Under the pieces are notes generated by a model. It was not told the origin of the DNA, did not search any database, and saw only the letters and a program-made list of their open reading frames with translations. A stretch of 64,000 nucleotides of DNA, from positions 2,300-66,299 of the forward strand of contig JAQGGW010000007.1 in NCBI GenBank assembly GCA_028289135.1, written 5' to 3'. The position numbers and the translations under genes were made by a program. The DNA is from Candidatus Saccharimonadota bacterium. GTDB lineage: Bacteria; Patescibacteriota; Saccharimonadia; Saccharimonadales; JACDBH01. Shown piece after piece: positions 1,842 to 41,297 of this stretch. Positions within the stretch are counted from its first letter, which is position 1. Each line of letters opens with the position of its first letter.

Positions 1842-2453
1842 ATGGCAAGAATTTTTACAGAAACACGGCGTGAAGCGCGCCAGGAAAAATCTATAAACAA
1901 GAAGCTCACTAAGCTAGCAACTTCGCATGGCTTGGAACTTTCGGACGACCGCTTAGCCCATTTAACAGATAATGCCAAGAGATTCCAAGACTTACAGTTG
2001 AGCGGCAGAGGCCGACGTGTTAGTTTTGTGCAAGATGGTATAGGCATTGACCCCCAAGTAAGCTTCAAAAGCTGGGAAAGGGTATCCGCTATCGATTTTG
2101 CTCCAACCATCGCTGAAGGAGTTAGGGCCACTAAACAGCAACGCGCCTTAACTACCGAGCTGTCGCTTGACGTATTGCACGCATTGCAGGATTATACACT
2201 GCTCGTTGATGGCGGCTATATAGAAAAACCCACCCGTCTTGCCAATTATACAAATAAAGATATGAGCAAAGTTGCTGAACGTGTTGGGTTTGTTCCTTTG
2301 CCGCAGGCACCTGGTTTTATTAGTGCCGACTATGACGCTATGCAAGCAGCGCTGTTTTCACCCGAAACTTTCCGCGTTGAAGCTATGTTAATGCAGCGCC
2401 AAGAACGGCTTCAGTCTGCACTTGGTAACACTGCAGCGATTGGACAGGGTTAA
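1842..2453 (+). CDS. hypothetical protein
   Basis: 203-aa ORF behind a promoter-like motif. I recognised no family motif. Confidence 0.5.
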   Translation: MARIFTETRREARQEKSINKKLTKLATSHGLELSDDRLAHLTDNAKRFQDLQLSGRGRRVSFVQDGIGIDPQVSFKSWERVSAIDFAPTIAEGVRATKQQRALTTELSLDVLHALQDYTLLVDGGYIEKPTRLANYTNKDMSKVAERVGFVPLPQAPGFISADYDAMQAALFSPETFRVEAMLMQRQERLQSALGNTAAIGQG

Positions 2454-2457
2454 GATT

Positions 2458-2874
2458 ATGAGCCATACACATGAAGCACTTCGCTCACCAGTTGTAGAGA
2501 CTTTAGTTGAAGCTGCAATCCCTGAAAGCAGAGTGTATACAGTTGACGGCATTACCTTGCCAGATTTTGACCTTGACCTAGGTGTGTTATCACTTTTTAA
2601 AGACACACCTACTGATATTTTGGATGAGTTGTTTCAGGATGCTTATCCGGAGAATAAAAAAGATGCTCTTAATTCTGTTTCAGAGCAAGAACTAACTAAC
2701 CTTGCTGGGTTTGCTAACGAAAGTATTAGCGCAGATCATATTAAAAAAGCACAGCCAAACCAAACAGTATATATTGGTCCGCGCGCAATTCATCGCCGGC
2801 CAGCCCTTAAAGCAGGTGCTATGAGGCTTGGAATATTTTGTTTTATTGGCGTATCTGAATTAAACGATATCTAA
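2458..2874 (+). CDS. hypothetical protein
   Basis: The track ORF 2422..2874 is trimmed to ATG 2458 (MSHTHEALRS...), just after the upstream stop. No recognisable motif. Confidence 0.4.
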   Translation: MSHTHEALRSPVVETLVEAAIPESRVYTVDGITLPDFDLDLGVLSLFKDTPTDILDELFQDAYPENKKDALNSVSEQELTNLAGFANESISADHIKKAQPNQTVYIGPRAIHRRPALKAGAMRLGIFCFIGVSELNDI

Positions 2875-2905
2875 AAATCACCGGTTTTTGAGGGCCGGTG
2901 ATTTT
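2875..2905. terminator. bidirectional rho-independent terminator
   Basis: aaaatcaccgg (2875-2884) pairs with ccggtgatttt (2895-2905), with A- and T-tracts on either side. It sits between convergent genes. Confidence 0.7.
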
Positions 2906-2927
2906 ACTTTAAGGAATTTAGGGAGGG

Positions 2928-3464
2928 TTAGTTAGAAGTTGAGCTGGTGCTCGTCATGTCGGATGCTGGGGCTATGTCGCCGTCAGGTCCGCCGTGACCT
3001 CTATGACCGCCGCCATGAAGCATGTTGGCATATTCGGTTGGGATTTTGTTGTCGGATACCCATTTGTCGAATGCTGTTTTTTCGGCTTCTCTGGCGGCTT
3101 TGCGTTCGGCGGCTGTCATGGTGCTCATTTTGCCTCGATTGGCATCGCGTGTTGTTTGAAGCGACTTAAACTCAGCCACAATCGCATCGGATTGTGCCTG
3201 GGTGATTGTGCCCGCAGTTACGCCAGCTTTAAGCTTGGTTTGCAGCTTGGTAAGCCTTGAAGCTTCGTGGTCGGCACGGTTCTGGTCAAAGACCGCTTGG
3301 ACGTCCGCTTTTTTAAGGCCAAACTTGGCTGCAATTTTATCTACAATGCTGGTCTCGGTTGTGCCGGTGGTGCTGGTTGCAGCGTTTGCTACACCCACGC
3401 CCAATGCGCCAACGCCAATGGATGCCACCGTTGCGGCGACTAGTAATTTCTTTTTCATACTCAT
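2928..3464 (-). CDS. secreted hypothetical protein with His/Gly-rich C-terminus
   Basis: Signal peptide MSMKKKLLVAATVASIGVGALGVGVANA, a helical Ala/Lys/Thr-rich body, and the tail ...HGGGHRGHGGPDGD. Confidence 0.5.
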   Translation of the reverse strand: MSMKKKLLVAATVASIGVGALGVGVANAATSTTGTTETSIVDKIAAKFGLKKADVQAVFDQNRADHEASRLTKLQTKLKAGVTAGTITQAQSDAIVAEFKSLQTTRDANRGKMSTMTAAERKAAREAEKTAFDKWVSDNKIPTEYANMLHGGGHRGHGGPDGDIAPASDMTSTSSTSN

Positions 3465-3570
3465 GCATATCTCCTATTTATAGTTTGTACCACGCTAGCT
3501 TGTGGTAATAGGGACTATATATTCTCAGGGTGAGAATCAGCTGAGGCGAATATAGGAGAAAATACTAGGT

Positions 3571-3963
3571 TTAAGCAGTGGCTGGAGCGGTATCTTCTTG
3601 GTTGTCGATTTCTTGGACGCCGCTACGGACAAAATGTGAGGCGTAGGAGATTAGTGTGTAAAACAAGTAGTAGGCGCTAAAAGTTGCACCGGTCGACATT
3701 TGTACCATGGTGTGCGAGTCTTTAAAAATGTTATTGAACGGCGAGACAAACGGATCGGTAAAAATGGTAATTCCGCGGGAGAGCGGGCCGCCAACAAACA
3801 GCAGCGCAAATATAATACGTAGCGCAAGCCCAATAAGAAGTGTCGCGCTGGCGAAGGCAAAGATGGTGTAGGCTCTTTCGGCAAGGTCGAAATGATTTAT
3901 TTTGGGAATATTGAGGGACAAGGACTTTAGGTCATTTTCTGTCGACTGGACTGTATGTGCCAT
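3571..3963 (-). CDS. YggT-like integral membrane protein
   Basis: 130 aa with two hydrophobic helices. The segment ...ALRIIFALLF...TIFTDPFVSPF... resembles the YggT family core (TdP..P). SD aaggag lies 8 nt upstream of the ATG. Confidence 0.4.
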   Translation of the reverse strand: MAHTVQSTENDLKSLSLNIPKINHFDLAERAYTIFAFASATLLIGLALRIIFALLFVGGPLSRGITIFTDPFVSPFNNIFKDSHTMVQMSTGATFSAYYLFYTLISYASHFVRSGVQEIDNQEDTAPATA

Positions 3964-4102
3964 GGCGGGACTCCTTATGTGATGCGCATAAGTATTGCTT
4001 TAAACATAAAATTTTGCAGTAATCAAGCCCGCAGCTTGGCTGTAATAAAACCGACATTCTTATGTTTATGTATCTTGATTGATGGTTGTTAATGGCCTGG
4101 CT

Positions 4103-6940
4103 TTAGCGGTAGGCAGCTTGGAATTCTGGGCCGTTTTTAAAGCGGTAGTGCAGGTAGGCGAGGGCTAAGAGTCCAAAAAGCAGGCTCATTGCGACTGCGG
4201 AAAAAGCCATGGGGTGCGCGGCACTGACAGCGAGCAGGCCTTGTTTGGTGGAGCGTGCGGCGGCACTGAGGTTGGTGGTGGCTTCGCCCAGGACTTTGCC
4301 TGCTTTTGATTTTGTTTCGGGAGTTTGCTGCGGGGTCGTCTGTGGTTGCTGGGCCGTTTTTGACGCAGGGTTAACGTCTGTTAAAAGTGGATTATTTTGT
4401 GCGGTGTTTTCTGAAGGTTGGGTGCTGACGCCGGCAGTGATGTCGATGGCGGTTGGCTTTGGTGTGCCGCTGGCGGAGGTAGTGGTTGGGTTTTGGGGTA
4501 CAGGGTCTGGTGCCGGAGATGTGCTTGTTTGGCCGGAAGTTGTGGTTCCACTCGGAGTTGACGTGGCGGCAGGCGGCGGGCCGATGTTTGGGTCGCAGGC
4601 GTCGTCTTGGCCGTCTTTGTCAATGTCTTGGCCGCTGGCTGTAATCACTCCGCAGGCGGTTGGGTTGTCTGGATCCAAAACATCAACGGTTGTTGTGATA
4701 CTGACGGGTTGGTTGGTGACATCTTGGCCGTCGATTGTGACTGTTTGGGTGCCGGCCGTATCAGTTGGAATCTGGATGGTTATGTCACCATTATTGCCGG
4801 AAGTTATGCTGCCACTTGGGACTCCATTTGTGGTGATGGTGTAGGCTGTATTTGGCTGCAGGGCAAAGTCGTGGCCGCTAATTTTGGCGGTGGTTGGTTT
4901 GGCTTTGGCGACCGTTGGTTCGCTGGCTGTATTGGTTGCAATCCGCTTTATTGTGCGGCCGGTTTTTGGCACGTTTTTAAGTGCTGAATTTTCGTCGCTG
5001 ATGGGCGGCAGTGTGGCATTTGGGTTGTCTGGAATAATGCCTAGGTTGTTAGTTATATTTAGAATTTTTTGGGCGAGGAGGAACTGGCCGAAGGCGTTGG
5101 GGTGGAAACTTTCGTTGCCAATGACATGCATAATATCGCTGCCAGCCGTGAGGCCGTTCATGGCAATGCTGCCGGCAGTTGCTTCGCATAGGCGGTGGCC
5201 ATTGAAGGCGTCTTCGACGTCGGCGTAGTAGACTCCGGCTTGGGAGGCGGCGGTTTTTACCATGGCGTCGATGCGGCCGATGAGTTCTCCGGCAAAGGTT
5301 AGCTCGCTTTCGCTCATGTGGACGTTTGCGCCGCAGTTGCCGGTGCTCAGCGCAATTTGCGGGTAGCCAACTGCGTAAATCCGTGCACTATTTGGCGCGG
5401 CGGATTTGAGTTTTTTGTAAACATTTGTGAGCGTTGGAAGTTTGCTATCGACAGTTTTAAAAACTTCCAGCCGGTCTTCGTAGGTGGGGTAGCAGGTACC
5501 GGCATGGGCGCAGGATTTTACGAGCGGGCCAAAGTTTAGGTCGTTGCCGATGACGCTGAGGGTTATTAGTTGGGGCTGGTTTTCGGAGACGAATTTAATT
5601 TGTTTGCTGTAGCCTGGTAACCAGGCACCCAATCCATTCACCGCAGGCTGATATGTTGGCCTATACTGGTTATCTCGATCAGTTCTTATACCATCCTTAT
5701 CGATGCCGCTACCGCCACCCACGTTATATGTCATTGCTCCAGAACAAGCCACCGAATGGAAACTGTCAATGCTCAGCTTTTTAGCAATTAAGTATGGGTA
5801 AGAAAGGGTCGAAAGGTGGCATTTATTGTTATTGTCGTCTGTGCCAACTTCGTAACTCTGCGAGCCTTCGCCGGAGCTAAATGAATCACCCATACCAAGA
5901 TATTGCATGCCGGCAAGAGTTGTGCCGGGTGCTGCCAAGGCAAATTGGCCGGTTTTATAACTGCTGCTAATGTCGTATGAAGCATAAATCTTAAGCTGAT
6001 CGTTGGTTATAAAACGCATCTGTAAAATACTTCCCAGATCGCTGACTTTGCTTCTAAAATATGTGTCTAGATCTTGCGACTGGCAGTTAATTGGTTGGCC
6101 AATAACGCTTGGCACAGAGTCGCAGGTGCTGAGGTCAAAAATGCGAAAATAATGAAACGCTTTGGATGCTACAGCTACAAAACGCCCGTCGCCGCTTATG
6201 GCAATGCGTTCTGCCGAGCCAGTGCCGTCGCCATTTTCTAGCGAGACTTGAAAAGGCAGGACTTCCATGGTTTCTAGATTTATGCGCAAAATTCCGTGTC
6301 CAGGCGAATCGACTACAGCCCATTTGCCGTCGCTTGAGCCAACCATATTGTCTAGCAAAACCGGCAGCAAATTGCCGGCAGCATCGGTGATGGGGGTTTG
6401 GGTTACGGGCGTAACTTCGGCCCAGATTTTTCCATTCAGCGAACTGGTGTAGCGGATGGAACCCGTGAGTCGTGACAGCCAAACATAATTGCCAATGGCG
6501 GGTGCGCCGCTTTGGGTACTAACAAATACGTCGGAGCCGGGGAAGGCAAAAAACGGGTAAGGGCTGTGGTCAGGGTGGACGGTTTCGGCCACATACGGCG
6601 TACCCGGCACATCCATAAATCCATTATCCAAGACTTCGCCTGCAGTAGTGTCCAAAAAGCAGCCGCTAATCTGGCTTTCGCTATAAAGCAGCGGCGGGAT
6701 AATAGCGCCGTTTCGTTTTGTAAAGCTTAGGTTGCTGCAGTCGACGTTGCCGTGTTGGATAAAAGTGCTCGGCAACTGGTTGTCGGTTACGTTTGGATTT
6801 TGGGCCGCAAAAACCGGGTCGCCGATTGCAAACCAAGGTGATTGCGCAGGCGACGCCATGAGTTTGGCGGGCAAGGCAGAAAGGCCGCACAAAGCGGCCA
6901 AAAGCAGGATTCGTTGCAGGGTTGTTTTGCCACGCTTCAT
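4103..6940 (-). CDS. large secreted SGNH/GDSL-family hydrolase with Pro/Thr-rich stalk and C-terminal TM anchor
   Basis: 945 aa with a signal peptide (LLLAALCGLSALPAKLMA). SGNH blocks are GMGDSFSSGEG (block I), SVIGNDLNFG (block III) and ESFHPNAFG (block V, DxxH-like). A long T/P/S/Q-rich linker is followed by the terminal helix FSAVAMSLLFGLLALAYL. Confidence 0.7.
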   Translation of the reverse strand: MKRGKTTLQRILLLAALCGLSALPAKLMASPAQSPWFAIGDPVFAAQNPNVTDNQLPSTFIQHGNVDCSNLSFTKRNGAIIPPLLYSESQISGCFLDTTAGEVLDNGFMDVPGTPYVAETVHPDHSPYPFFAFPGSDVFVSTQSGAPAIGNYVWLSRLTGSIRYTSSLNGKIWAEVTPVTQTPITDAAGNLLPVLLDNMVGSSDGKWAVVDSPGHGILRINLETMEVLPFQVSLENGDGTGSAERIAISGDGRFVAVASKAFHYFRIFDLSTCDSVPSVIGQPINCQSQDLDTYFRSKVSDLGSILQMRFITNDQLKIYASYDISSSYKTGQFALAAPGTTLAGMQYLGMGDSFSSGEGSQSYEVGTDDNNNKCHLSTLSYPYLIAKKLSIDSFHSVACSGAMTYNVGGGSGIDKDGIRTDRDNQYRPTYQPAVNGLGAWLPGYSKQIKFVSENQPQLITLSVIGNDLNFGPLVKSCAHAGTCYPTYEDRLEVFKTVDSKLPTLTNVYKKLKSAAPNSARIYAVGYPQIALSTGNCGANVHMSESELTFAGELIGRIDAMVKTAASQAGVYYADVEDAFNGHRLCEATAGSIAMNGLTAGSDIMHVIGNESFHPNAFGQFLLAQKILNITNNLGIIPDNPNATLPPISDENSALKNVPKTGRTIKRIATNTASEPTVAKAKPTTAKISGHDFALQPNTAYTITTNGVPSGSITSGNNGDITIQIPTDTAGTQTVTIDGQDVTNQPVSITTTVDVLDPDNPTACGVITASGQDIDKDGQDDACDPNIGPPPAATSTPSGTTTSGQTSTSPAPDPVPQNPTTTSASGTPKPTAIDITAGVSTQPSENTAQNNPLLTDVNPASKTAQQPQTTPQQTPETKSKAGKVLGEATTNLSAAARSTKQGLLAVSAAHPMAFSAVAMSLLFGLLALAYLHYRFKNGPEFQAAYR

Positions 6941-39776: not shown

Positions 39777-39978
39777 GGTCTCATCATAGCAAACATCAGG
39801 TTATTTTTTAGTTTCCCAGAGGTTGGTGATGTCTGTCCAAGTGAGCTTTTCGAGGCTGGTATCAAAACGACAAAAACTAACATTAAAAGTGTGAAGTATT
39901 TCACTGAAGGTTATATTGCTTTGCCATACACTACTATTGCAACGTTGCGCTGATACGTAAAAAGCTAAGGAGAATATT

Positions 39979-40143
39979 ATGGCAGACAACACATCAGGCC
40001 GAGGATTTGCATCAATGGATGAAGACAAGCAAAAAGAAATTGCTAGCAAGGGCGGCAAAGCTACCGGCGGCAAGAACTTAAGCACCGAAGCACGCGCCAA
40101 GGGCGGCAAGAACAGCCATGGCGGCGGTCGTAAGAGCGAATAA
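39979..40143 (+). CDS. KGG-repeat general stress protein (YciG/Con-10-like)
   Basis: Not in the ORF track because it is only 54 aa. SD aaggag lies 7 nt upstream. Sequence: MADNTSGRGFASMDEDKQKEIASKGGKATGGKNLSTEARAKGGKNSHGGGRKSE. A terminator follows at 40181-40213. Confidence 0.8.
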   Translation: MADNTSGRGFASMDEDKQKEIASKGGKATGGKNLSTEARAKGGKNSHGGGRKSE

Positions 40144-40180
40144 AAAGTTTTAGCAAACAAATTCCATAAGAGTCCCCTGG

Positions 40181-40213
40181 AAGGACACCTCACTCGATGG
40201 GGTGTCCTTTTTT
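40181..40213 (+). terminator. rho-independent terminator
   Basis: aaggacacc ... ggtgtcctt followed by a T-tract. Confidence 0.7.
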
Positions 40214-40266
40214 GCTACTAGATAATTTTGTAGCAAAGTAATTATCATTTTTACGTGTGAACATAG

Positions 40267-40295
40267 TTGACGGGAGGCGTGAGTAATGGTATTTT
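40267..40295 (+). promoter_or_regulatory. sigma70-type promoter of the leader ORF and SAM-hydrolase-like gene
   Basis: TTGACG (40267-40272), 17 nt, TATTTT (40290-40295), with TG at 40287-40288. ATG 40303 is 8 nt after the hexamer. Confidence 0.55.
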
Positions 40296-40302
40296 AGGTT
40301 AG

Positions 40303-40365
40303 ATGAAAAGACGAAGTGCCGAATTGACCATGATGATGCCCATGCAATGCCCTCAGGCTGGTTAG
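40303..40365 (+). CDS. candidate 20-aa Met-rich leader peptide
   Basis: MKRRSAELTMMMPMQCPQAG has four Met in five consecutive codons (40330-40344). Its 3' end and stop lie inside the 5' arm and loop of the downstream hairpin. Confidence 0.35.
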   Translation: MKRRSAELTMMMPMQCPQAG

Positions 40366-40415
40366 TTAGACATTTAATCAAGAATTTTACCGGCCTGAGG
40401 GCCGATTTTTAATTT
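40349..40415 (+). terminator. candidate attenuator terminator
   Basis: A 14-bp stem pairs gccctcaggctggt (40349-40362) with accggcctgagggc (40389-40402), including one G.U pair. The loop is 26 nt and AT-rich, and cgatttttaattt follows. Confidence 0.45.
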
Positions 40416-40439
40416 ATTAGTAAATATTTGAGGAGAAAA

Positions 40440-41297
40440 ATGATGAGCAGGGAAACAGAACCAAAAGTGGTGGCAATTATTAACGACTGCCGTGACCCGA
40501 ATGCAGTAGCCCGCCAGCAGATGATGGTTGGCAACCTTTTTGACGCCAACCAAACATTTGTTGGTGTCGATTCGGAGTTGGAGGCAAGCGGCAACTTGGT
40601 GGATTTACTGGACATAAGCAACGGGCGGCCAAATATAATTTTGGTTAACAAAGCGCCTCGCAATGGCAGTGCTAGGCAACACAAAAACGGCACGCCTTTT
40701 GGGTTTTTTTGGCACGGTGAAACCCTGGTTGTTAGCAGTGTCGACGGCCTAGCCCTGTCGCTGCCTAAAAAACTAGGGCTAACAGCGGTGGTGCGTGAGC
40801 TGGATATTGAGTCGACAGTCGACGATGTGCTAGAACAAACGGGTGAGGCCGACGAGCCGGGTCTAAGGGATAAGATTATCGACACCCAATACCGAAGCCT
40901 TGAATATGTACCACGCGTGGCGCGGGCGCTTTGGAACCGGGCCAACATCCAAAGTGAGCTAAAAAGTCTTGACCATGTTCCGAATGCCAATCTACGTGGT
41001 TGGGGAGTAGATAACTTTGGTAACGTCAAAACAACGGCATTACCTGGTGATATTGGTTTTGATCCAGAACAGGGGGATGGTTTTAGGATTACGACAGCGT
41101 TAGGCGAACTTAGCTGTTACCGTCAGCTTCGCAGTGTTCCAGATGGAGAATTAGCAGTTACAGTCGGTAGCTCTGGCTTTGGAAAAGATAGATTTTTGGA
41201 AGTTGTGGTGCAGGGCGGCAGTGCCCACGACAGGTTTGTGCAAGCTGACCCAGGCTTTAAATTGTCCGAAACAAATTTGTTTACGCCCGCGTCTTAG
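40440..41297 (+). CDS. S-adenosylmethionine hydrolase-like protein (DUF62 / SAM hydroxide adenosyltransferase family)
   Basis: SD gaggag at 40430-40435. The N-terminus VVAIINDCRDPNAVARQQ, ...LVVSSVDGLA..., VDNFGNVKTT and ELAVTVGSSGF...FLEVVVQGGSAHDRF match, from memory, the conserved blocks of the DUF62/fluorinase/chlorinase family. Confidence 0.45.
   Translation: MMSRETEPKVVAIINDCRDPNAVARQQMMVGNLFDANQTFVGVDSELEASGNLVDLLDISNGRPNIILVNKAPRNGSARQHKNGTPFGFFWHGETLVVSSVDGLALSLPKKLGLTAVVRELDIESTVDDVLEQTGEADEPGLRDKIIDTQYRSLEYVPRVARALWNRANIQSELKSLDHVPNANLRGWGVDNFGNVKTTALPGDIGFDPEQGDGFRITTALGELSCYRQLRSVPDGELAVTVGSSGFGKDRFLEVVVQGGSAHDRFVQADPGFKLSETNLFTPAS

Follow-up and report, generated by a model that had tools for sequence, protein, structure and literature searches.

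What controls the gene at 40440-41297, and why does a short reading frame crowded with methionine codons stand directly in front of it? Our analysis covers the window, i.e. the whole stretch of 64,000 nucleotides, and focuses on the roughly thousand positions that contain this gene and its leader. The promoter, the leaderless ATG, the Met-rich upstream ORF (uORF), the 14-nt inverted repeat and the U-tract that the first-pass annotation described are all present where it had placed them; the Shine-Dalgarno sequence GAGGAG that it reported exists as well, but lies a few bases away from the position implied. The features to which we refer are the following.

40267-40272, + strand: -35 hexamer TTGACG, found by promoter scan; the closest relative, L001, has TTGACG at equal spacing.

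40287-40295, + strand: extended -10 element TGgTATTTT, found by promoter scan.

40303-40365, + strand: leader ORF MKRRSAELTMMMPMQCPQAG, 20 codons and a stop, taken from the ORF list and the sequence.

40330-40344, + strand: Met run ATG ATG ATG CCC ATG, with Met at codons 10-12 and 14, read from the sequence.

40349-40362, + strand: segment 2, GCCCUCAGGCUGGU, the proposed antiterminator strand, recognized as an inverted repeat and by family-wide pairing.

40389-40402, + strand: partner strand of segment 2, ACCGGCCUGAGGGC, recognized as an inverted repeat and in the fold of the 14-bp helix.

40391-40404, + strand: probable intrinsic terminator hairpin CGGCC-UGAG-GGCCG (segments 3 and 4), found by terminator scan.

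40406-40410, + strand: U-tract T5, 1 nt 3' of the terminator stem, from the sequence and the terminator scan.

40430-40435, + strand: Shine-Dalgarno sequence GAGGAG of the regulated gene, read from the sequence and unpaired in the predicted folds.

40440-41297, + strand: regulated gene for a divergent DUF62-fold protein, based on profile, fold and database matches.

The annotated start of the regulated gene is probably its second ATG, at 40443, and the encoded protein is 100% identical to a 284-aa hypothetical protein of a Saccharibacteria MAG. The earlier description of a DUF62 gene holds for the fold, but was overstated at the level of profile HMMs: the C-terminal domain profile PF20257 reaches 22.1 bits with the window protein, below the Pfam cut-off of 25.5, and the N-terminal domain profile PF01887 matches neither this protein nor any of the 33 family members. 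PF20257 matches 32 of the 33 members at E <= 0.01 (best E = 9.5e-10); when the family profile was compared with the PDB, the hits were confined to two DUF62 chains and, within these, to the C-terminal domain (E = 0.004). An NCBIfam search with the window protein gave no match, and a single-sequence phmmer search against the PDB returned nothing useful. According to the AlphaFold model (pLDDT 92.1, pTM 0.90) and Foldseek, the two-domain DUF62 fold is present in the window protein; without exception, the top 21 PDB matches belong to the DUF62 hydrolases or are SalL, ClA or FlA (E-values between 9e-11 and 2e-7, probability 1.0, TM-scores of 0.5-0.6, identity of 13-17%). Members of the family, which appears to be restricted to the candidate phyla radiation (CPR), carry a DxFGN-like motif. 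The reaction of characterised DUF62 enzymes is the hydrolysis of (R)-SAM, which yields adenosine and L-methionine (10.1101/2025.08.29.672840). Judged from a fold match at this level of identity, the putative enzyme of the window most likely cleaves SAM as well, releasing L-methionine. At one related locus (L028), the presumably leader-controlled gene is followed 27 nt downstream by metG, the gene for MetRS.

The next question is how the leader in front of this gene is expressed. A 17-nt spacer separates TTGACG from the extended -10 element, and the promoter scan scores 9 out of 12 matches, with the TG extension present in addition. Between the -10 hexamer and the uORF ATG at 40303 lies a spacer of 7 nt, the A being the eighth base, so that the transcript start is expected at or adjoining the AUG; on this promoter geometry, the mRNA of the window should be leaderless. 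The same arrangement prevails among the relatives: of 24 leaders scanned, 20 have their best sigma-70-like -35/-10 match at a position that leaves 5-12 nt to the uORF ATG, and nothing resembling an SD precedes this ATG. The Met codons of the window uORF occupy 40330-40338 and 40342-40344, i.e. four out of five consecutive positions.

Such leaders are found far beyond the window. Among 81 loci of distant homologues, which represent many Patescibacteria lineages and share 41-67% protein identity, about 27 possess a short upstream ORF with a run of Met codons, and so do two of four further loci fetched afterwards; the leader is absent from roughly two thirds of the homologous loci. Counted in all frames, clusters of at least four Met within at most six codons occur in 21 out of 82 upstream regions, compared with a single cluster in the other 1.08 Mb. 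This distribution suggests that the device recurs across many CPR lineages. Together with the DUF62 fold, the conserved uORFs lend strong comparative support to the core idea of the first-pass annotation, according to which a leaderless Met-rich ORF and a terminator produce a methionine response. The closest relative, L001, whose protein is 67% identical, agrees with the window in its promoter spacing and likewise has a leader ORF of 20 codons, MKKTISESTTMMPMLRPQAG, which ends in MMPM..PQAG before its stop; the helix arms are identical to those of the window, the loop has diverged, and T6 follows directly after the stem. Because both arms are identical, this pair of loci yields no covariation.

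What is more demanding is the interpretation of the RNA structures. An alignment of 20 leaders with MAFFT gave no consensus pairs in RNAalifold; since leader lengths are too divergent to be aligned, we computed duplex energies locus by locus, with pairs across loci and shuffled sequences as controls, and all structural statistics are based on energy minimisation of single sequences. Sequence prediction places a short GC hairpin adjoining a T-run in 25 of 25 leaders, 10-41 nt 3' of the stop codon; the terminator calls were limited to the region 3' of the uORF stop, and the one in L028 was assigned by hand. The 3' end of the uORF, which contains segment 2, pairs with the 5' arm of this terminator: the mean energy within a locus is -18.2 kcal/mol as compared with -11.7 kcal/mol across loci, the mean z-score against shuffled sequences is -4.1 for the 25 leaders, and 89% of the terminator-arm nucleotides are sequestered by the pairing, while the pair types of the helix differ between loci. 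In most leaders, the start of segment 2 lies 8-13 nt downstream of the last Met codon. Given the size of the footprint, this is where the front of a ribosome would be when it stalls on the run. Segment 2 thus starts just outside the footprint, which means that an antiterminator strand would be free during the stall, rather than a terminator arm being masked. A segment 1:2 protector or pause hairpin, as in the four-segment design of the trp type, is not consistently predicted for the 25 leaders (mean z = -0.34), only three of which score below -2.

In the window itself, the inverted repeat consists of 14-nt arms (40349-40362 and 40389-40402; 93% complementary) that are 26 nt apart; CGA and T5 come after the second arm. 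Segment 2 lies inside the last uORF codons and adjoins the UAG stop; the third Met codon is 10 nt away from its start, and the last Met codon ends 4 nt before it. The 64-nt stretch 40349-40412 folds into the 14-bp helix with -28.7 kcal/mol (z = -6.1), and none of 200 shuffled sequences folds as well; no other structure in the leader comes close to this helix in stability. Nested within its 3' arm, and absent from the first-pass annotation, is a 5-bp all-GC hairpin, CGGCC-TGAG-GGCCG, which adjoins the T-run; accordingly, the partner strand is made up of segment 3 and the terminator loop, and extends 3 nt into segment 4. In the predicted folds, masking of segment 2 lets the 5-bp terminator form (-9.3 kcal/mol), and a free segment 2 gives the 14-bp helix. 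The repeat arm is not a dispersed element of the window: at up to three mismatches it has four matches in the window, compared with 1.3 expected, and only one exact copy. As a candidate terminator of the upstream KGG gene the hairpin was rejected; that gene has its own hairpin and T6 at 40181-40215.

Which of the two structures terminates transcription is the point on which the reading of the locus turns. It had been proposed that the 14-bp hairpin and the U-tract form the terminator, and that a ribosome stalled for lack of Met-tRNA covers the 5' arm and so prevents termination. This account, which we regard as unlikely, can draw on the outstanding stability of the 14-bp helix and on the presence of U5 only 3 nt beyond it, and a ribosome stalled on the last Met codon, 4 nt from the arm, would indeed cover about half of it. 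However, with the 5' arm masked, the nested hairpin and U5 are left free to form – this is the predicted fold – so that masking would not prevent termination, and when the ribosome stalls at Met10-12 the arm stays free in any case. The corresponding segment of 23 other leaders has as its partner the 5' arm of a terminator that is a hairpin of its own, and no U-tract follows the resulting helix. A loop of 26 nt and a CGA spacer are atypical of intrinsic terminators, and both would be unusual features here if the 14-bp helix were one. The masking step is probably wrong, since segment 2 acts as an antiterminator strand in the predicted pairings across 25 leaders. The 14-bp helix of the window is therefore most likely the antiterminator and not the terminator; the latter is probably the nested hairpin CGGCC-UGAG-GGCCG with U5 at 40391-40410, as far as sequence can tell. 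Two details of the window remain less tidy: its terminator stem is short (5 bp), and the 14-bp helix, whose end is only 3 nt away from the U-run, might have some terminator activity of its own. Furthermore, a stall on the fourth Met codon covers part of segment 2, and the predicted fold then favours the terminator; the fit to the antiterminator model is clean for Met10-12 only.

We consider it probable that the region is a ribosome-mediated transcription attenuator, which senses methionine through the charging of elongator Met-tRNA and controls the DUF62-fold enzyme. As predicted from the leader sequences, it would be a classical antiterminator/terminator switch that dispenses with the protector hairpin, i.e. 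a three-segment variant. Transcription would begin at or beside the AUG of the 20-codon leader ORF and yield a leaderless mRNA. With sufficient methionine, the ribosome would pass the Met codons, reach the UAG stop and cover segment 2; segments 3 and 4 would then pair, and the polymerase would terminate in the U-tract. When Met-tRNA is scarce, the ribosome would stall at Met codons 10-12 with its leading edge just short of segment 2; the free segment 2 would pair with segment 3 in the 14-bp helix, which also takes up the loop and part of segment 4, no terminator hairpin would form, and the polymerase would read into the gene. A leader that carries no ribosome, for instance because initiator fMet-tRNA is short as well, should default to read-through, because there is no segment 1 protector hairpin; such a default is appropriate where initiation, too, depends on the amino acid that is sensed.

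Three further explanations accept the anatomy of the leader, or parts of it, and differ in what is sensed or made. According to the first one, the uORF encodes a TnaC- or SpeFL-like arrest peptide, which responds to free methionine, SAM or another molecule instead of Met-tRNA charging, possibly with the opposite logic of induction by excess. A uORF followed by an antiterminator and a terminator would serve such a peptide equally well, and the induction of a SAM-degrading enzyme by excess SAM would be reasonable. Known arrest peptides, however, need specific conserved residues, and conservation is limited here to the Met run: positions within the run and next to it tolerate many residues (P, A, S, G, Y, V, R, N, K, E, H, W and Q are all found), and the C-terminal residues of the leader peptides follow the RNA pairing. 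A further argument comes from a metagenome scan with the pattern ATGATGATGBNNATGATG, which matched at least 120 loci. The matches listed lie mostly in eukaryote-like low-complexity DNA, and none of them encodes a member of the DUF62-like family; one of them, L185, has a Met-run uORF upstream of a metY-metX-hom operon. A Met-run uORF before a methionine biosynthesis operon fits starvation sensing, and we regard the arrest peptide as quite improbable.

Alternatively, the AUG repeats might not be translated at all, but be bound as a motif by a protein or a small molecule, comparable to the triplet repeats recognized by TRAP, or belong to an undescribed riboswitch. Repeated AUG, UGA or GAU triplets might in principle constitute a binding site of this kind, and Rfam has no model for such a motif either way. 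Against this stands that the Met codons of each run always share one reading frame with whole-codon spacers, that an in-frame ATG always precedes the run (by 6-12 codons), promoter-proximal and leaderless, and that a stop codon is then placed at segment 2; nor is there a conserved structure around the Met run. We consider this explanation very improbable. Least credible of all is a functional small peptide, e.g. a precursor that is modified by the adjacent SAM-utilising enzyme, with the hairpin setting the ratio of peptide to enzyme: the neighbouring enzyme does belong to a SAM-binding fold, and the order of precursor gene, partial terminator and enzyme gene is familiar from peptide natural-product clusters, where it is common, but the sequence is unconserved beyond the Met run with a C-terminus dictated by RNA pairing, genes for a transporter, a protease or other maturation functions are absent from the loci, and DUF62 chemistry targets SAM itself.

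What would an attenuator sensing Met-tRNA charging mean for these organisms? We tentatively put forward that Met-codon leader peptides constitute an overlooked class of methionine regulation, in CPR bacteria and beyond. If this is true, the CPR version would be of ancient origin and mostly leaderless, an attenuator of three segments that reads the charging of Met-tRNA and, by default, the failure of initiation. Methionine is awkward to sense in this way, because it is also required to start the translation of the sensor, and the three-segment, default-on design would be a simple answer. By switching on a SAM-cleaving enzyme, auxotrophic epibionts could use SAM – their own or host-derived – as an emergency reserve of methionine, and DUF62-type enzymes would gain a physiological setting, namely methionine recovery under starvation. 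The cellular function of the DUF62-like family is still debated; the combination of a Met-starvation signal with a DUF62-fold enzyme leads to a testable role, the release of methionine from SAM. The physiology of Patescibacteria is known almost only from gene inventories, and this would be among the first cis-regulatory mechanisms defined for them, showing that they monitor tRNA charging. Moreover, phyla outside the CPR may employ the same device for their classical operons of methionine biosynthesis; the metY-metX-hom operon of L185, with its Met-run uORF, is a candidate. The signature, a Met-run uORF followed by a terminator, is simple to search for in other genomes, and the fact that the match before this operon was unplanned suggests that it is more widespread.

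Leader-peptide attenuation as such is well known; for a methionine-specific case with a Met-codon leader peptide, we found no prior description in Rfam or in the literature searched. The first-pass annotation had recognized no features of a SAM riboswitch or a T-box in the leader: a search of window positions 39800-40700 against Rfam 15 at E <= 10 returned only chance-level terminator and SD look-alikes and no riboswitch or T-box, and at the gathering score the only matches in 40 related loci are tRNAs and rRNAs. SAM riboswitches (SAM-I to SAM-VI, SAM/SAH) and Met T-boxes likewise couple methionine or SAM status to methionine or SAM genes through a leader, often with a terminator/antiterminator pair. 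In contrast to them, the leader described here has no aptamer or T-box signature and would sense through translation, not through a ligand or tRNA that binds the RNA. With regard to the enzyme, the protein shares the two-domain fold with the SAM hydroxide adenosyltransferases, (R)-SAM hydrolases and halogenases of the DUF62 family (PH0463, MJ1651, SalL, FlA), and its own family shares with them the DxFGN-like motif and, in 32 of 33 members at E <= 0.01, the C-terminal PF20257 signature, which in the window protein stays below the Pfam cut-off; the protein is set apart from them by its low identity and by the lack of matches to PF01887 and NCBIfam.

The polycysteine leaderless sORFs of mycobacteria act as Cys-responsive attenuators (Canestrari et al., 10.1101/834739). 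They resemble our candidate leaders in that a leaderless short ORF starts from a 5' AUG and is rich in consecutive codons for a single sulfur amino acid; a stall in this run switches on downstream genes tied to that amino acid there, and would do so here. Yet the mycobacterial ribosome, once stalled, opens a structure that sequesters the RBS, whereas here the Shine-Dalgarno sequence is predicted to be unpaired and the competing structure would be a terminator; amino acid and phylum differ, too. In the classical attenuators (trp, his, phe, leu, thr and ilv, represented by the Rfam leader families) we find the design that is predicted here, namely a translated short ORF with a codon run for one amino acid, the intrinsic terminator between leader and gene, the 5' strand of the antiterminator at the end of the leader ORF, and a choice of helix that is set by the position of the ribosome. 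Compared with these systems, the candidate attenuator would sense methionine and would work without the segment 1:2 protector or pause hairpin; its leader ORF is apparently leaderless, while theirs are led by an SD; it would regulate a cofactor-cleaving or salvage enzyme and not a biosynthetic operon; and its host is a CPR bacterium with a reduced genome.

The composition described in the first-pass annotation is present in the window in all its parts: promoter, ATG, Met-rich ORF, 14-nt repeat with T5, GAGGAG and gene.

Elements of the leader region
40267-72: -35 element TTGACG, 17-nt spacer to the -10
40287-95: extended -10 element TGgTATTTT, then a 7-nt spacer and the uORF ATG
40303-40365: leader ORF (uORF) MKRRSAELTMMMPMQCPQAG with its stop codon, ATG at 40303
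40349-62 and 40389-402: arms of an inverted repeat, 14 nt, 93% complementary, 26-nt loop
40391-40404: nested all-GC hairpin CGGCC-TGAG-GGCCG, 5 bp, from a terminator scan; missing from the first-pass annotation
40406-10: T5 tract, CGA lying between the 14-nt repeat and T5
40430-35: GAGGAG (Shine-Dalgarno, SD), upstream of the gene
40440-41297: putatively regulated gene, DUF62-like; a hypothetical protein from a Candidatus Saccharibacteria metagenome-assembled genome matches its product at 100% identity

The ATG follows the -10 hexamer by 8 nt, as claimed (40303, 7-nt spacer). The claim that other leaderless genes in the window share this geometry holds only in part: a strict TTGAnn-(16-18)-TAnnnT-(5-9)-ATG pattern opens just one other long ORF (91 codons; 44040, minus strand), a possible second leaderless gene. 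Upstream, the KGG-repeat gene ends in a terminator of its own, which makes the leader a separate unit. This neighbour (39979-40215) encodes a 54-aa stress-protein homologue (PF10685), and the hairpin and T6 behind it (40181-40215) indicate that intrinsic terminators are in use in this genome. The region between that terminator and the leader promoter contains an inverted repeat (TTTGCTACTAGAT/ATTTTGTAGCAAA, 40211-40237) whose 13-nt arms are 1 nt apart. A second and weaker promoter-like site (40219-40248) overlaps this repeat, which may bind a protein.

The nearest protein relative (L001, soil metagenome, 67% identity) has the same leader: promoter TTGACG-17-TGGTATATT, ATG 8 nt beyond the -10 hexamer, a 20-codon ORF (MKKTISESTTMMPMLRPQAG, then stop), the window's helix arms exactly, with a diverged loop between them, and a T6 tract. 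Because the arms are identical, this pair yields no covariation. The remaining homologues, drawn from many Patescibacteria lineages, are all less than 50% identical. Conservation of a Met-rich uORF, proposed earlier as a check, is evident among them: within 300 nt upstream of the gene, about 27 of 80 fetched loci contain a short ORF with a Met-codon run (e.g. MRVENKMMNMMMAPERGRI, MNVKAQIEMMMAMMTLKNEGTFSYI, MFNMDNKNSMMMMMMRMMNLFHVG, MIARNSMMMRMMTPAHGG, MKKNSKKIMMGMMSTV), and the device occurs at two of four further loci from an exact-protein look-up (MCARDIMMWAMMLKPSAEGLVVRP and MKTYAATQSMMMQMMNLWQEG, with a hairpin and T-run behind both ORFs). When Met runs are defined as at least four Met in at most six codons, 21 of 82 loci have one in the 250 nt preceding the gene, on its strand (20 kb searched), against a single one in the remaining 1.08 Mb (both strands, all frames), which rules out a chance origin.

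In a neighbour-joining protein tree, genes with the leader are spread over several deep branches, and one large clade is without it. Certain neighbours recur in this clade. A second, paralogous PF20257 protein is encoded directly downstream in eleven loci (L003, L004, L005, L015, L016, L021, L024, L037, L038, L042, L074); divergent genes for tRNA-Ile(GAU) and tRNA-Val(UAC) lie just upstream in 12 of 14 leader-less loci scanned, with tRNA-Ile alone in one more, and a 16S rRNA gene is close by in 9 of 20. At another homologue (L075, about 2775), an upstream ORF ends in HPQAG and a stop (CCCCAGGCTGGCTAA), resembling the end of the window uORF, with no Met run before it; it may be a decayed leader.

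The leaders have a common anatomy. The Met run is preceded, 6-12 codons earlier, by an in-frame ATG. Of 24 leaders, 20 have their best -35/-10 match ending 5-12 nt short of this ATG, and SD-like sequences are absent ahead of it in these 24, which points to a leaderless start. The predicted terminator, a GC-rich hairpin with a short stem (4-13 bp) and a loop of 3-8 nt, abuts a T-run and lies 10-41 nt past the stop codon and 12-113 nt ahead of the gene. In 25 loci, a segment (segment 2) between the last Met codon and a point just beyond the stop is predicted to pair with the 5' arm of the terminator: the mean duplex energy is -18.2 kcal/mol for own-locus pairs (mean z = -4.1 against shuffles) and -11.7 for cross-locus ones, and 160 of 180 arm nucleotides are taken up by the pairing, which in 24 of 25 loci occupies 60% or more of the arm. 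Arm nucleotides vary between loci, both partners changing together, although these pairs come from per-sequence energy minimisation and are weaker than true alignment covariation. A bacterial ribosome covers about 9-10 nt beyond the A-site codon; since segment 2 in most leaders extends from 8-13 nt past the last Met codon to the vicinity of the stop codon, it should be just free at a Met-run stall and covered by a ribosome on the stop. No consistent upstream partner for segment 2, i.e. no protector, was detected (mean z = -0.34). In many leaders (L007, L011, L023, L030, L039, L048, L050, L058, L070, L072, L077), the terminator 5' arm bears a shared CAGCC(T/C)(T/C)C motif whose counterpart in segment 2 is G(G/A)AGGC(T/C)G, a similarity that exceeds what pairing requires and suggests common descent or an extra constraint, the latter being conceivable because segment 2 resembles a Shine-Dalgarno sequence.

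Taking start signals, terminator, antiterminator, spacing and the missing protector together, we describe the leaders as putative three-segment antiterminator/terminator attenuators. A stall in the Met run would leave segment 2 free to form the antiterminator helix (14 bp in the window) and block the terminator hairpin; a ribosome on the stop codon would cover segment 2, and segments 3:4 would form the terminator. The comparative evidence thus supports the core of the first-pass proposal, a Met-sensing attenuator built from leader ORF and terminator, and on these grounds we regard sensing of Met-tRNA as probable.

The proposed route, as it was put, probably does not work. It had the stalled ribosome cover the 5' arm of the 14-bp hairpin and so prevent termination; in the predicted folds, masking that arm leaves the nested terminator free, and a stall at Met10-12 is out of reach of the arm. 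In the window, segment 2 (40349-40362) runs up to the UAG stop from a point 10 nt beyond the third Met codon. The nested hairpin (40391-40404) is made of segments 3 and 4; it sits inside the 3' arm of the repeat, abuts the T-run and has A and U5 behind it. Masking segment 2 makes this hairpin the predicted fold (-9.3 kcal/mol); leaving segment 2 free gives the 14-bp helix, which draws in segment 3 together with the loop and 3 nt from segment 4. At -28.7 kcal/mol (z = -6.1; equalled by none of 200 shuffles), this helix is far above chance expectation. Because masking or freeing segment 2 switches the predicted fold, the helix, previously read as the terminator, is most likely the antiterminator. 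A stall at the fourth Met codon gives an ambiguous predicted fold, and the helix, ending only 3 nt from the U-run, could itself terminate to some degree; our confidence in which helix terminates in the window is somewhat lower than in the attenuator as a whole.

Other roles for the uORF appear unlikely. A ligand-sensing arrest peptide is argued against by conservation being limited to the Met run. For a functional or modified small peptide, the C-terminus is set by RNA pairing and maturation genes are absent. An untranslated RNA motif would not readily explain why the AUG repeats keep a strict reading frame with spacers of whole codons, why an in-frame ATG sits close to the promoter, or where the stop codon is placed.

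At the sequence level, the DUF62 assignment of the regulated gene is weak: the window protein scores 22.1 bits with PF20257 (cut-off 25.5) and matches neither PF01887 nor any NCBIfam model. The family and the fold point to DUF62 even so. PF20257 is matched at E <= 0.01 by 32 of 33 family members, and the family profile matches the SAM hydrolase MJ1651 (E = 0.004) over the DxFGN region. Among PDB structures, the 21 best matches to the AlphaFold model (pLDDT 92, pTM 0.90) are without exception DUF62 hydrolases, SalL or ClA chlorinases, or FlA fluorinases (TM 0.5-0.6, identity 13-17%). The gene thus appears to encode a DUF62-fold protein with putative SAM-cleaving activity. To our knowledge, every reaction characterised for this fold displaces L-methionine from SAM; hence induction on methionine shortage makes sense, and the earlier argument to this effect is upheld. 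DUF62 enzymes hydrolyse (R)-SAM to adenosine and L-Met (10.1101/2025.08.29.672840). In one fetched locus (L028), metG (methionyl-tRNA synthetase; PF09334, E = 6e-97) starts 27 nt past the putatively leader-controlled DUF62-like gene, and both are probably on one transcript; homologues of this synthetase (same BLAST cluster) adjoin a DUF62-like gene in L067 and L076.

Met-run leaders may extend beyond this gene family, because one precedes methionine biosynthesis genes on a contig (L185) found among the matches listed in a metagenome scan. The contig does not encode the DUF62-like family. A uORF (MNNILRNNAMATMMMHMMMCCRQSYCQRLQSG, then stop) with a hairpin and T9 (about 1859-2040) is followed by metY-like (PF01053), metX-like alpha/beta hydrolase and homoserine dehydrogenase genes (2077-5655). 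Inspection by eye suggests pairing between the uORF end TTGCCAAAGG and the 5' arm of the terminator, CCTTTTGGCAA, and the arrangement would be a candidate Met-codon attenuator on a classical methionine biosynthesis operon.

Rfam 15 contains no family matching the Met-run leader, and in the literature covered, with most subscription journals outside it, we found neither a methionine-codon leader peptide nor any leader peptide or attenuator described in Patescibacteria. The logic is the same as in classical leader-peptide attenuators, but another amino acid would be sensed, the protector hairpin is missing, the start is apparently leaderless, and the kind of regulated gene and the phylum differ. 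Nearest in spirit are the polycysteine leaderless short ORFs of mycobacteria, which act on ribosome-binding-site access (10.1101/834739), whereas Met-run leaders would act on termination. The Met-run attenuator thus appears to be a variation on known leader-peptide regulation, for which the comparative evidence is strong.
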